DNA of 64,000 nt. Source: Deltaproteobacteria bacterium. Its GTDB lineage: Bacteria; UBA10199; SPLOWO2-01-44-7. The stretch is taken from NCBI GenBank assembly GCA_023265595.1, contig JAHFSU010000003.1:6178-70177 (forward strand), in the 5' to 3' direction. Of the stretch, positions 21,622 to 62,414 are shown piece after piece (positions within the stretch are counted from its first letter, which is position 1; each line of letters starts with the position of its first letter). A program made the position numbers and the translations under genes. The notes beneath the pieces were generated by a model, which was not told the origin of the DNA, searched no databases, and saw nothing but the letters and a program-made list of their open reading frames with translations.

Positions 21622-21652
21622 AGCAACTTTTTTTGAAACCTGCCGATAATAG
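21622..21652 (+). promoter_or_regulatory. Copy a of the conserved promoter-like motif aaGCAACTTTTTTTGAAAcctGCCGATAAtag (CAAC-N14-GCCGATAA).
   Basis: Read directly. GCCGATAA matches the sigma-28/FliA-class -10 element. Divergent from the rlmE start. Confidence 0.5.
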
Positions 21653-21704
21653 TATTAGAGAGAAGAGGAGTCACTATTTCTTTGGGGTATAAAGTCGCCA
21701 AAAC

Positions 21705-21723
21705 AGGGGAAAATCCCCTTTTT
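21705..21723 (+). terminator. Short stem-loop AGGGGA-aaa-TCCCCT followed by TTTTT, about 50 nt downstream of motif copy a. Terminator or attenuator-like.
   Basis: Read directly. The 6-bp stem is weak. Confidence 0.3.
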
Positions 21724-21836
21724 GGGGGAGCGGCATTTGATAATTATATAGTAATTTCAATTACTTATAATTTATCCTGAGCGATTCAGTTTTGGCAACG
21801 GTTTTGCAAAGTTAAAGGGGAGCAAAAGGGGTATAT

Positions 21837-22196
21837 ATGTCTGCTATCGGCTCCGTTGGTTTGAAAAATTATGATGCCTTGCTGAAGGCGCTTTCCAGCT
21901 ATCGTCCGACTCTAAGCGGAGTCAAGGCGCTTGAGGAAGCCGCTTCCAAAGTCGACATCAATCTGAATCAGGCATTTGCAGAGGCCGGTTTGGGAAAATT
22001 CAAATCGGCTCTAAGAGGTATTAACCCGAGTCTATTCGGTTCAAAAGCGCCCGCCCTTTATCCCGGTCAAGCAGAGGTTGTTGCCGCTCTTTTTATGAAA
22101 ATTGAGAAACAAAATCCTGCCTTGGCGGGAGAACTGGCCGCAGAATGGTTTCATACCGTCGCAAAGGAGGTCCCCATTTATGGCAAGCAAAACTAA
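21837..22196 (+). CDS. Small hypothetical protein (119 aa, Ala-rich, helical).
   Basis: ORF with a GGAG-type ribosome-binding site. No known motifs. Confidence 0.45.
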   Translation: MSAIGSVGLKNYDALLKALSSYRPTLSGVKALEEAASKVDINLNQAFAEAGLGKFKSALRGINPSLFGSKAPALYPGQAEVVAALFMKIEKQNPALAGELAAEWFHTVAKEVPIYGKQN

Positions 22197-22500
22197 AAAA
22201 TGGACAAGAACCGAGGCGGTCCGTGTTTTTGAAATTTTGATGGAAAGGGGGAGCACCCTTTTTTCAAACCCCCATTTTCGCAAGCATTTAAATCGCGATG
22301 AAAACCTGTTGGCTAACCAATTTACCCGCGAGGCCAATGGGAATATCGCCTATCGTTCTGTCGATTTCAAAATTGAGGAAGAGATGACCGATAACGATTT
22401 TTGGAGCCGCATTGAAACAACACCGTATAATGATTTGATCGAAGAGAATGCCGCCATCGCTATTGTTAAAATGGCCGAAAAGCTGAAATTGGTGTCGTAA
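22181..22500 (+). CDS. Small hypothetical protein (about 106 aa).
   Basis: Starts at MASKTKKW, overlapping the previous stop by 16 nt. No known motifs. Confidence 0.4.
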
Positions 22501-22531
22501 CAATTTTTTTTTGGATTTTTTGAAAATAATT

Positions 22532-22562
22532 AGCAACTTTTTTTGAAAGTTGCCGATAACAG
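22532..22562 (+). promoter_or_regulatory. Copy b of the conserved promoter-like motif taGCAACTTTTTTTGAAAgttGCCGATAAcag.
   Basis: Read directly. Followed 30 nt later by a strong terminator. Confidence 0.5.
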
Positions 22563-60169: not shown

Positions 60170-60172
60170 CGT

Positions 60173-61186
60173 TTATAAGAGCAGCATGCAATCGCCGTAA
60201 CTAAACAGCCGATAGCGCTCCGATATCGCCTCTTGATACGATTGCAAGAGAAATTCTCGCCCTGCAAAGGCCGCAACCATTAGGATCAGCGTGGAACCGG
60301 GCTGATGAAAGTTGGTCAGGATCCCATCCACCATTTTGAAGGGAGTACCCGGGTATATATAATGATAAGTGACCGGTTGGCTCCAATCGCTCTCGAGTGC
60401 GCGGACAACGGTTGTCCCGATTGCAATCACCCGGCCGCCGTTTTGTTTTGTCCGGGCGATTTTTTCTTTTGTTTCATCGGGGATGTGAAAACGTTCGCCG
60501 TGCATTTTGTGTTTTTGGATATCGGCTTCACGGATCGGCAAAAAAGTGTCGCGCGAGACATGCAGCGTGATTGTTGCTGTCTCAATCCCTTTGTTTTTGA
60601 TGGCTTCGAGCATTTTTTGGCTGAAGTGAAAGCTGGCGGTGGGAGCGGCGGCGGAACCTTTGTGGCGCGCAAAGATCGACTGATAGCGAACGCGGTCTTC
60701 TTTTGTGTAGTCGGCCGCTGATTTGCGCCGGATATAAGGAGGAAGCGGCGGCAGACCGATTTTTTCAATCTCTTCTTCAAAATTTTTGGATTCAAATTGA
60801 ATCCGCAAAACATCTTCTCTATTTTGGATGATGGTCCCTTTTAAATTTTCTGAAAAAATAAGTTGCAGCCCTTCGCCCAATTTTTTGAGCGGCTTGCCGA
60901 GACATTTCCATGTTTCGTCAGGGCCGCATTTTTCAAGAAGCAGAATCTCCATTTTTCCGGAAAGAAGGCGAGCCGGAAAAACTTTGGTATCATTGAAGAC
61001 CAAAAGGTCTCCTTTTTGCAAATAAGCCGGCAAATTTTTGACCCACTCATTGCATATGGTACCTGTTAACATATGCTCGTCTGTTGGGCGCTGGAGGACC
61101 ATCATCCGGCTTGAATCCCTTTTCGGCAGCGGGTGCTGGGCGATGAGCTCTTGCGGATAATCGTATTGGAAAAGGCTCAAATCCAT
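60173..61186 (-). CDS. queA: S-adenosylmethionine:tRNA ribosyltransferase-isomerase.
   Basis: QueA N-terminus (FxYxxPxELIAQxP) and C-terminal motifs. The ORF-track start at 61381 is rejected; the Met at 61186 matches family length. Confidence 0.85.
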   Translation of the reverse strand: MDLSLFQYDYPQELIAQHPLPKRDSSRMMVLQRPTDEHMLTGTICNEWVKNLPAYLQKGDLLVFNDTKVFPARLLSGKMEILLLEKCGPDETWKCLGKPLKKLGEGLQLIFSENLKGTIIQNREDVLRIQFESKNFEEEIEKIGLPPLPPYIRRKSAADYTKEDRVRYQSIFARHKGSAAAPTASFHFSQKMLEAIKNKGIETATITLHVSRDTFLPIREADIQKHKMHGERFHIPDETKEKIARTKQNGGRVIAIGTTVVRALESDWSQPVTYHYIYPGTPFKMVDGILTNFHQPGSTLILMVAAFAGREFLLQSYQEAISERYRLFSYGDCMLLL

Positions 61187-61224
61187 AAAAATGTTACACC
61201 TAGTGCCTGGCACTATATGATACG

Positions 61225-62361
61225 TCAATAGAGCTTTCGGAGGGTTGCTTTCGGATAATAAAATTTGAGGATTTCCTGATAGGTTTTGCCCGATTCGGCC
61301 ATTGTTTTGGCCCCCCATTGGCAAAGACCCACGCCATGGCCATATCCGGTGCCGGTGAAGACGATTTCGCGCGGTGACCAATCGATATCAAACCATGTGC
61401 TCTTTAACTCTTTGTATCCCAAAATCCGGCGTAAATCGGTGGCCCCGATGAAAAGTGTCGCCACATTGGTTTCGACAATCACCATTACGTTTCGGGGCCC
61501 CTCTTCATAGCGCTCCAACGAAATATTTTTAATCCGCGAACCTTCCAATCCGTGGCTTTTGAGCTGATTTAAAAAATCGCGCTGGCTAAGACGGAGCTGC
61601 CATTTGCGCTGTGGAGAATTTTCGCAAAAAGGATCGATTACCGAATAAGACGATTCTTTTTTCCCCCAAACCCGGCTTGCTAATTCGGTTTGTCCTCCGC
61701 AACAACTGTGAAAATAGGCGGGATACAATCCGTTTCTCCAGAGGACCTCTCCTTTTGTCGCCGCGACGATTTCTTGAACGATTCGGTCTTTGGGATCATC
61801 CATCATGCCGGCATAAACCTGATCGGCGATGTCGGATTCCAAATCGTAATCGGAAGAATTAAGAGATGCTTTTTGCTGTTGGCGCTTCAATGCATACGTT
61901 CGAGCGGCGACAGCCTGTGCTTTGAGCGCCTCCGGATGCCAAAGGGCTGATATTTCACCGTGGATGAGACCGATAAGATAGTCCTCCAACGGCAGTTCAT
62001 TTAAAACCAGTAATTTTCCGTTCGGTGTTTTTCGGATTTCAATTTTTCCATCCACTTTTTTTCCATCCACATCGATCAATTCTTTTTCGGCGCCGATTTG
62101 GATAAAAGGATAATCAAAATTTTCGCTATTGATGGCAAACCCGTCATCGGTGGCTGTGATATGCGCCGGGTCGTCGATATGATAACCGATCGGTCTTGGC
62201 TCCGGCGTTTTGACGTACAATTGATAACCTTGTACGGTCACTTGGGGGACCTCTTTAAAAAGGGCAACCCGAATTAGAGGCATCAATAAAAGAGGTAAAA
62301 ACAGGCTAAAGAGGCGATTTTGCATCATTTTCATTCCTAGCATAATTGTTTGATATGACAA
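61225..62361 (-). CDS. SpoIID/LytB-domain protein.
   Basis: HSCCGGQTE signature. Signal peptide. Confidence 0.75.
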   Translation of the reverse strand: MSYQTIMLGMKMMQNRLFSLFLPLLLMPLIRVALFKEVPQVTVQGYQLYVKTPEPRPIGYHIDDPAHITATDDGFAINSENFDYPFIQIGAEKELIDVDGKKVDGKIEIRKTPNGKLLVLNELPLEDYLIGLIHGEISALWHPEALKAQAVAARTYALKRQQQKASLNSSDYDLESDIADQVYAGMMDDPKDRIVQEIVAATKGEVLWRNGLYPAYFHSCCGGQTELASRVWGKKESSYSVIDPFCENSPQRKWQLRLSQRDFLNQLKSHGLEGSRIKNISLERYEEGPRNVMVIVETNVATLFIGATDLRRILGYKELKSTWFDIDWSPREIVFTGTGYGHGVGLCQWGAKTMAESGKTYQEILKFYYPKATLRKLY

Positions 62362-62379
62362 AGGTATTTTGGTTATAAT
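62350..62379 (+). promoter_or_regulatory. Sigma-70-like promoter TTGATA-N18-TATAAT upstream of motif copy e.
   Basis: Read directly. Confidence 0.4.
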
Positions 62380-62388
62380 TTAAAGACA

Positions 62389-62414
62389 CAACTTTTTGGA
62401 AAGGCTGCCGATAA
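62389..62414 (+). promoter_or_regulatory. Copy e of the CAAC-N14-GCCGATAA motif (acaCAACTTTTTGGAAAggctGCCGATAAagg).
   Basis: Read directly. It ends 9 nt before the ATG at 62424, which implies a leaderless or near-leaderless mRNA. Confidence 0.45.

Follow-up and report, generated by a model that had tools for sequence, protein, structure and literature searches.

The stretch of DNA analysed here (the window) comprises 64,000 nucleotides of contig JAHFSU010000003.1 from a Deltaproteobacteria bacterium (GTDB phylum UBA10199). It has about 47% G+C with a positive GC skew throughout, and its housekeeping genes include TolQR/TonB-like genes, murI, transketolase, IleRS, lspA, lgt, rlmE, carD, ispD, secDF, tgt, queA and recJ. 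Among these genes lie six copies of a bipartite box, in which CAAC and the octamer GCCGATAA are separated by exactly 14 nt, and all six copies are on the + strand (Table 1). Only 0.03 such matches are expected in the window, and none of 100 shuffled window sequences reached six. The octamer alone occurs 12 times versus 2.5 expected; the other six copies are intragenic and have no CAAC partner. All eight positions of the sigma-28 -10 element GCCGATAA are identical in the six boxes, and the upstream pentamer is GCAAC (once ACAAC), which shares with the sigma-28 element TAAAG only the central two A's. The conserved stretch covers about 27-31 bp and has the extended form (A/C)GCAACTTTTT-N8-TGCCGATAA. 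An earlier note on this DNA had described the six copies, their fixed spacing and common strand, and their number as far above chance; an exact pattern search confirms each point. Its consensus aGCAACTTTTTTGAAAnnnTGCCGATAA is correct for the window, but its GAAA part is not conserved among relatives.

The boxes precede six units, whose contents are as the earlier note described them: a pair of small open reading frames (ORFs; unit a), a terminated short unit (b), a protein with several helix-turn-helix (HTH) domains (c), a PHP-type lipoprotein (d), a weak methyltransferase match (e) and a GGDEF protein (f). Also in keeping with that note, no sigma or flagellar gene was found in the window. Exact copies of window proteins occur in ENA assembly ERZ27297570, in Logan run SRR14366766 and on a contig of 73,432 bp, likewise recorded in NCBI; the ENA contigs reach about 1.3 kb past each window end, and no sigma gene lies in that extension.

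Table 1. Boxes, predicted transcripts and genes of the six units, with related features of the window and of other contigs (L numbers denote related loci, with positions counted in the locus; PWM, position weight matrix score; +1, predicted transcription start)
Feature	Position	Strand	Remarks
Exact CAAC-N14-GCCGATAA matches	21624-21649, 22534-22559, 28101-28126, 34239-34264, 48149-48174, 62389-62414	+	Box copies a to f
Promoter a, GCAACTTTTTTTGAAACCTGCCGATAA	21623-21649	+	PWM 46; +1 at 21657
Leader of unit a	21657-21836	+	180 nt predicted; weak hairpin and U run at about 21697-21728; fold z-score only -1.5
Genes of unit a	21837-22196; 22180-22500	+	119 aa and 106 aa; no family match for either
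Promoter b, GCAACTTTTTTTGAAAGTTGCCGATAA	22533-22559	+	PWM 44; +1 at 22567
Unit b, predicted non-coding RNA	22567-22617	+	About 50 nt; purine-rich 5' end GAGAGG; stem 22591-22611, then TTTTTT
Promoter c	28100-28126	+	PWM 43.5; +1 at 28134, the G of the GTG start codon
Gene c	28134-29108	+	324 aa; two XRE-type HTH domains; N-terminal ~100 aa uncharged
Promoter d, GCAACCTTCTT...	34238-34264	+	Two mismatches; PWM 27; +1 at 34272, ATG at 34273
Gene d, lipoprotein	34273-37563	+	1096 aa; CarboxypepD_reg and CehA/McbA-type (PHP-type) metallohydrolase domains; NF038032 at 87.5 bits (cut-off 80)
Promoter e	48148-48174	+	PWM 43; +1 at 48182; 17-nt leader (GAAGGGA...) to ATG at 48199
Gene e	48199-49662	+	487 aa; weak S-adenosylmethionine-dependent methyltransferase match; uncharged Ser/Thr/Ala-rich N-terminus
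Promoter f, ACAACTTTTTGG...	62388-62414	+	PWM 31; +1 at 62422, ATG at 62424
Gene f	62424-63938	+	Membrane HAMP-GAF-GGDEF diguanylate cyclase
Weak seventh candidate, GCAACTTTTTTCTGGTTTTGACGAACA	52246-52272	+	Up to 3 mismatches to GCAACTTTTT-N8-TGCCGATAA; PWM 15.8; doubtful
NtrC-type response-regulator activator gene	L156 8074-9444	-	Divergent from and adjoining the sigma gene
Sigma-54-type promoters	L152 9949; L156 9947; L150 9952; L154 9959		5' of the sigma-28-like gene or of sctV
Canonical boxes, MGRG01-type genome	L154 4002; L154 5320		5' of genes for a 409-aa orphan and a PP2C protein, respectively
16-nt-spacer variants, GCAACTTTGG...CCGATAAT	L156 4859, 7208, 20182(-)		5' of type III secretion cluster genes

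The box is widespread in related genomes and behaves there as a promoter. A strict pattern derived from four window copies and searched in one-genome-per-species representatives was found at 24 places in about 14 metagenome-assembled genomes (MAGs), mostly labelled 'Deltaproteobacteria bacterium' (five in RIFCSPHIGHO2_01_FULL_43_49, four in SBBF01 and three in E14_metabat.bin.232), and the looser GCAACTTTTT-N8-TGCCGATAA matched at least 120 metagenome contigs. At 169 collected sites, a stop-free frame of at least 150 aa runs over the site in 30% of cases, compared with 81% of random positions, and 150 sites have an ORF start on the same strand no more than 250 nt away (median 35 nt); the box is always oriented with the downstream gene. 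About 170 mostly intergenic, co-oriented sites bear out the claim that the box defines a regulon. The positions themselves are also kept. Window positions 10-27 kb are syntenic with L140 and partly with L075, L033, L084/L029, L145 and L069, and boxes occupy orthologous positions in species whose proteins are 40-89% identical. Promoter a adjoins the divergent rlmE/ftsJ gene (21045-21620, - strand), whose start codon is 2 nt away, and stands at the same place relative to rlmE in L069, L140, L075 and L033. Promoter b follows the 106-aa gene and precedes carD and an antisense tRNA-Phe; it recurs there in L140, L075, L033 and L084/L029, with a variant in L145. Moreover, a multi-HTH homologue of gene c in another MAG (L008:4567-5949) likewise lies 3' of a box, as does a PP2C phosphatase gene in two different MAGs.

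Near-identical copies in large numbers per genome, with all six window copies on one strand, would also be found if the box were a dispersed repeat, such as a mobile-element end, a unit resembling repetitive extragenic palindromes or miniature inverted-repeat transposable elements, or a DNA-uptake sequence. We regard this as highly improbable. Alignments between loci cover the 27-31 bp of the box only, and the collected loci yielded no flank similarity, paired inverted ends or target duplication; in addition, orthologous positions are retained in distant species and distances to start codons are short and fixed. A mobile-element end, which had been named beforehand as the outcome that would speak against a promoter, is excluded because the flanks are unrelated. 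The box is a promoter class, not a repeat element.

Some collected sites depart from the common type. The same box is seen about 45-55 nt 5' of a topoisomerase I gene on three contigs with no apparent relation to the main lineage (L078 4147, L113 7854 and L141 2315(-)), which may reflect chance matches or use of the box in another group. A second spacing class, GCAACTTT(G/C)(G/A)G...-N-...CCGATAAT, in which GCAAC and the octamer stand 16 nt apart instead of 14, comprises, besides the L156 sites in Table 1, L088 10810, L104 2481 and L131 9105; a 15-nt spacing occurs at one collected site only.

The geometry of the box matches that of structurally characterized sigma-28 promoters. In the open complex of Pseudomonas aeruginosa sigma-28 on the fliC promoter, GCCGATAA occupies -15 to -8 and TCTAAAG occupies -36 to -30 (PMC12784957). 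With the octamer of the box set at -15 to -8, GCAAC falls at -34 to -30, the exact place of TAAAG, +1 becomes the eighth nucleotide past the octamer, and the T tract 3' of GCAAC parallels that of E. coli TAAAGTTT. The related sites were fetched with patterns that included the octamer; among 67 octamers not used in fetching loci, 21 have GCAAC at that exact distance and one has TAAAG. The earlier assignment of the -10 element to the sigma-28 class is thus upheld by a spacing equal to that of solved sigma-28 promoters, and the upstream half, read there as consistent with a divergent lineage, recurs as a lineage-specific GCAAC -35 across many species. The single TAAAG case, a canonical-looking TAAAG-N14-GCCGATAA in L005, falls within mnmA and was set aside as a chance occurrence.

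Start codons provide a further indication of where transcription begins. At 20 of 162 unique sites a long ORF starts 7-10 nt past the octamer (18 ATG and 2 GTG), almost none starts at 11-14 nt, and starts at 15 nt or more are broadly spread and accompanied by Shine-Dalgarno-like GGAG/GGGGAG. Such a bimodal distribution is the pattern that a fixed transcription start about 8 nt past the octamer would give. If transcription does start at the eighth nucleotide, the mRNAs of units c, d and f would have no leader or hardly any, with the ATG of unit d at +2 and that of unit f at +3; for unit c, the predicted +1 coincides with the G of the start codon, and hence its mRNA would be leaderless. Unit a would carry a 180-nt leader and unit b would be a terminated RNA of about 50 nt. 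The proposal of near-leaderless mRNAs in the earlier note is supported for copies c, d and f by the clustering of start codons across relatives. For unit e, a 17-nt leader is predicted.

Alternatively, a DNA-binding protein specific to the lineage, such as the multi-HTH product of gene c, could use the conserved 27 bp as its operator, or a sigma factor of another family could read them as its promoter; the likeness to a sigma-28 -10 would then be coincidental. For a promoter, the box is unusually well conserved; its T tract and the GAAA of the window copies reach past a classic -35, and copy b holds an 8-bp inverted repeat (GCAACTTT/AAAGTTGC). However, the spacer varies freely among relatives, so that dyad symmetry is not a general property of the box, the -10 agrees with sigma-28 at eight of eight positions at exactly the sigma-28 spacing, start codons pile up at the expected +1, and orientation always follows the downstream gene. 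We consider an operator or a promoter of another family improbable.

The genes driven by the box are diverse and non-flagellar, and most of their products match no Pfam family. Clustering by sequence divides the 150 downstream proteins into 135 groups. Of 20 that were scanned singly, five had a solid Pfam domain; a further 110 matched 38 Pfam families, 17 of them TPR, HEAT or Arm repeat models, compared with 128 families for 110 length-matched neighbour genes. Matches include subtilases, an M15 peptidase, a core domain of extracellular contractile injection systems, OmpA, thrombospondin-type repeats, an acyl-CoA ligase and HEAT/TPR proteins. No flagellar Pfam family appears among 130 downstream proteins. 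In phmmer searches with 34 E. coli queries (FliA; FliC/D/S/E/F/G/I/M/N/P/Q; FlgN/M/B-I/K/L; FlhA/B; MotA/B; CheA/B/R/W/Y; Tar), no flagellar gene was found among all ORFs of 824 kb around the ~170 boxes, in agreement with the earlier view that the regulon is not flagellar; the matches obtained were an RpoH-like sigma (L035), ATP synthase beta (L055), Rho (L070), one CheY-like receiver and one SctV. The RpoH-type sigma-32 gene (L035 2744-3628, with a QRKLFFNL box) stands directly 5' of a box that drives a small lipoprotein gene. Over their first 25 residues, motif-driven proteins are richer than neighbour proteins in small and polar residues (46.6% versus 39.8%, p = 2e-6) and poorer in Lys/Arg (9.0% versus 12.5%, p = 9e-6). 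As the start codons of the controls are approximate, this bias is no more than suggestive. Sec-like signal peptides show no significant excess in motif-driven proteins (13 of 104) over neighbours (34 of 396; p = 0.26).

The SctV match was the only result of the flagellar search that opened a lead to a type III secretion system (T3SS). It is an FHIPEP protein encoded in L006, 1.5 kb 5' of a box, which passes the cut-off of the SctV family TIGR01399 (794 bits; cut-off 692) and fails that of the FlhA family TIGR01398 (684 bits; cut-off 772). SctV homologues 75-92% identical to it are found in more than 120 protein clusters, many of them named SctV of 'Deltaproteobacteria bacterium' MAGs. The corresponding gene cluster is conserved and begins with BacA, PP2C, an M23 peptidase, SecA, SctV, a double-FHA protein, an SctD-like FHA/PEGA protein and small ORFs; it continues with a TPR chaperone-like protein, SctJ, two small ORFs, a sigma factor, an SctI-like ORF and a faint FliG-like protein, and ends with SctL, N, O, P, Q, FliO, SctR, S and T. 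The core components SctJ, D, L, N, O, P, Q, R, S and T are present by precomputed Pfam matches (YscJ_FliF; FHA/Yop-YscD_cpl; T3SS_SCTL/FliH; T3SS ATPase; YscO-like; Flg_hook; FliM with FliMN_C/SepQ_C; FliP; Bac_export_3; Bac_export_1), and no secretin SctC was seen in about 40 kb of the cluster, whose small ORFs carry no assignment as needle or translocator genes. The faint FliG_M/FliG_C protein (L156 11329-12297) and the FliO-like gene (17011-17295), with counterparts in L152, are traits that are normally flagellar. The cluster may represent an early-branching or intermediate T3SS. ParE-like and HicA/HicB-like toxin-antitoxin genes directly follow sctV in the MGRG01 genome (L154 12160-13847) and are absent from that place in other genomes.

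The sigma factor encoded in this cluster is a candidate reader of the box. The earlier note had suggested a search for a fliA/whiG-type sigma gene elsewhere, and a FliA/WhiG-like gene of the sigma-70 family (273-291 aa) is indeed found in the lineage, inside the non-flagellar T3SS cluster in three genomes. Its best NCBIfam family is FliA_WhiG (122-148 bits for six members), followed at a distance of 50 bits or more by SigB/F/G at 68-91 bits, and its seven best PDB matches all belong to the sigma-28 family, with WhiG as the best among WhiG and the FliA proteins of P. aeruginosa, E. coli and Aquifex. In the P. aeruginosa sigma-28 structure, Y76, R80 and D87 contact the -10 element, R80 and D87 at -12/-13. 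The equivalents of R80 and D87 are conserved in each of the ten lineage proteins in the alignment, which have F at the Y76 position (Y in E. coli); pairwise alignment of the member P0238 with P. aeruginosa FliA likewise gives F, R and D for the three residues. The -35 side differs. Q228 of P. aeruginosa sigma-28 makes a base-specific -35 contact, and the substitution Q228A cripples transcription. The sigma-4.2 helix, SESRVSQLH in E. coli, P. aeruginosa and WhiG, reads SKSWTSRLH in nine of ten lineage members and SKSWVSRLH in the tenth, so that all ten have R in place of Q228 and W in place of the preceding R. A conserved -10 reader combined with an altered -35 reader is what the box predicts. 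The gene for P0238 belongs to such a T3SS cluster on a 48.6-kb contig from ERZ27297570, which is the metagenome sample of the window itself; the same protein is also recorded for a 61.5-kb NCBI/ENA contig. A 162-aa gene that follows the sigma gene was considered as an anti-sigma factor and dropped, as its C-terminus by eye resembles the T3SS inner-rod protein SctI; no FlgM match was found in the collected DNA.

Sigma-54 elements precede the same genes. A divergent gene for an NtrC-type sigma-54 activator precedes the sigma gene in MGRG01-type genomes and on the ERZ27297570 contig, and sigma-54-type boxes TGGCAC-N5-TTGCA stand 30-40 nt 5' of the sigma gene in two genomes and 5' of sctV in two genomes. 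In the MGRG01-type genome, SctV, sigma and boxes are all on one contig. The window itself holds two sigma-54-type -24/-12 boxes, TGGCAC-N5-TTGCT at 8324-8339 (+) and TGGCAT-N5-TTGCT at 42090-42105 (+), versus 0.19 expected; the genes just 3' of them, a 556-aa ORF at 8366 and one for a signal-peptide protein starting near 42149, have no strong annotation.

On this evidence we judge it probable that the six boxes are promoters read by a sigma-28-family (FliA/WhiG-like) factor whose -35 specificity has shifted from TAAAG to GCAAC, a conclusion in which the earlier reading of the box is supported and essentially right. We infer that the lineage sigma reads this box and that it may be part of a cascade from sigma-54 to a sigma-28-like factor. 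Several observations weigh against these conclusions. The lineage sigma scores below the cut-off of 189.6 bits of NCBIfam TIGR02479 FliA/WhiG, for which E. coli FliA reaches 292 bits, and is thus not certified as a member of that family. The contig with sigma and T3SS is tied to the window only by the metagenome sample that they share. The boxes in the MGRG01-type T3SS cluster have a 16-nt instead of a 14-nt spacer, which is unusual for a single sigma factor, and L151/L152, on a 2.4-Mb contig with the same sigma and cluster, have no box at a PWM score of 14 or more and no promoter-like CCGATA site in 32 kb. The transcription starts are predictions from sequence. Finally, the genomes are sampled as fragments, and a second, canonical FliA may be encoded elsewhere.

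This last point raises the question of whether an ordinary flagellar FliA, encoded elsewhere, reads the box, in which case the organisms would be flagellated and the flagellar members of the regulon would have escaped the sampling. The Joint Genome Institute annotation names many members of the lineage sigma family 'FliA', and the cluster has flagellum-like traits (faint FliG_M/FliG_C, FliM, FliN and FliO). Against this stand the phmmer search, in which SctV was the sole relevant match, the lack of flagellar families among the downstream proteins, and the fact that no TAAA-type promoter was seen; furthermore, the canonical recognition helix SRVSQ would not explain a GCAAC -35. We hold a flagellar FliA to be an unlikely reader, although a slightly better candidate than the operator considered above.

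For the promoters proposed here, read by a sigma-28-like factor of shifted specificity, the arrangement would be as follows. GCAAC at -34 to -30 and the ensuing T tract would serve with (T)GCCGATAA at -16 to -8, and the best candidate reader would be the FliA/WhiG-like sigma (260-290 aa) encoded in the middle of the T3SS cluster, between sctJ and sctI-like/sctL/sctN. Sigma-54 with its activator would drive the sigma-28-like factor, which in turn would drive a large dispersed regulon consisting mainly of lineage-specific proteins without known domains, together with regulators (multi-HTH, PP2C and GGDEF proteins), surface proteins and lipoproteins, and small RNAs. More tentatively, and with the odds rather against it, the box could act as the 'hrp box' of an injectisome-type T3SS run on flagellar logic in this environmentally widespread lineage, marking secreted effectors along with the regulators and small RNAs by which the bacteria interact with a host or prey. 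If so, dozens to hundreds of orphan proteins per genome would belong to it, and the window units would be effectors, late substrates or controllers.

The 5'-proximal part of the unit a leader contains a block GGAGTCACTATTT(n)TTTGGGG that is common to the L069 ortholog. The 106-aa protein, without a Pfam or NCBIfam match, is 57-80% identical in six other contigs, and its gene is always found after a box-driven small gene and 5' of the short RNA; we regard it as a candidate regulator of the system. The predicted unit b RNA ends in an intrinsic terminator (-20.2 kcal/mol, z -3.3), whose 5' arm GGGGGAG, Shine-Dalgarno-like, is conserved across species, with the 3' arm varying via G-U pairs. This RNA occurs at orthologous places in L140, L084/L029 and L145, and a version of about 250 nt in L075/L033; Rfam gave no family other than tRNA-Phe at the short units. 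G-rich blocks GGGTTAGGG(G/A)TAA are present at 22620-22735 in the window, 3' of the box b orthologs in L140, L145, L075 and L033, and also 5' of some start codons (L131 747; L139). They may be strong Shine-Dalgarno-like sequences or protein-binding repeats. The gap that holds promoter e separates gene e from a divergent dNK gene ending at 48077. The doubtful seventh site combines a perfect -35 (GCAACTTTTTT) with a degenerate -10 (TGACGAACA), the lowest score of an accepted site being 20.9. An ATG at 52299, 27 nt past it, would open a peptide MTPLVSLTSLDIYSGALLVG with an N-terminus in the style of units c and e; stop codons before 53185 leave no long ORF from that ATG.

Sigma-28 is the textbook late flagellar sigma factor, and to our knowledge its known non-flagellar exceptions, in Bdellovibrio, Chlamydia and Streptomyces, keep a canonical TAAA -35. 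A limited literature search found no paper on a GCAAC-type sigma-28 box or on a sigma-28-like gene within an injectisome cluster. The combination of a canonical -10 with a different -35 in an uncultured lineage, together with a matching change in the recognition helix, constitutes a natural experiment in sigma/promoter co-change. A sigma gene in an injectisome-type operon behind a sigma-54 promoter also bears on the origin of the injectisome from flagella because it suggests that the cascade was inherited with the export machine. The regulon consists mostly of proteins of unknown function, possibly secreted, and the strictness of the box (about 35-40 bits) allows it to be listed in MAGs directly from the DNA.

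Compared with the FliA class 3 promoters of E. coli, Salmonella and Pseudomonas (TAAAGTTT-N11-GCCGATAA), the box has the same -10 octamer, the same 14-nt distance between pentamer and -10, T-rich bases after the -35, a predicted start about 8 nt past the octamer and a candidate sigma that is nearest to FliA/WhiG. It differs in having GCAAC for TAAAG and no flagellar or chemotaxis targets, and the candidate sigma, below the family cut-off, has the recognition helix SKSWTSRLH and a gene in an injectisome-type cluster. Streptomyces WhiG, controlled by cyclic di-GMP via RsiG (PMC7005675, PMC8325347), is another sigma-28-family factor re-used for a non-flagellar programme, and it is the best PDB match of the lineage sigma; WhiG, however, has a canonical TAAA -35, and neither RsiG nor FlgM homologues were found in the collected DNA. 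In Bdellovibrio bacteriovorus, the FliA attack-phase regulon (box TTAAG-N16-CCGATA; Karunker et al. 2013, PMC3627812) is a large, mostly non-flagellar programme of surface proteins, proteases, regulators, many uncharacterised proteins and small RNAs, for which transcription starts were mapped. The sigma-28-type box and the scale and content of the programme, small RNAs included, are alike, whereas the Bdellovibrio system has a TAAG-type -35, flagellar targets and no reported injectisome link, and the starts here are predicted only.

Chlamydia, which is non-flagellated and bears a T3SS, uses sigma-28 for a late-gene regulon (PMC10597470, PMC12282069) and sigma-54 for the control of T3SS effectors (PMC7482065). 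Both systems would thus employ sigma-28 and sigma-54 for developmental or secretion genes; here, in contrast, the T3SS operon itself contains the sigma gene and the regulon seems to be large. The chlamydial sigma-28 regulon is small and has a canonical -35. In the flagellar hierarchies of Vibrio, Pseudomonas and Campylobacter (e.g. Prouty et al. 2001, cited in PMC3627812), sigma-54 acts above sigma-28. The likeness lies in an enhancer-binding protein and sigma-54 placed above the export apparatus and the sigma-28 gene, with sigma-28 driving late genes; the difference is that the export apparatus here is an injectisome-type T3SS (SctV, SctD-like, SctJ) and that the cascade is suggested by promoter-like boxes only. 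HrpL of Pseudomonas syringae and Erwinia is an extracytoplasmic function sigma factor encoded in the T3SS cluster, and its box GGAACC-N16-CCACNNA stands at T3SS genes and at scattered effector genes. An alternative sigma in a T3SS cluster and a strict bipartite box are common to both systems; the lineage described here differs in that its sigma is of the sigma-28 type, its box is a different one and its targets are only putative effectors.

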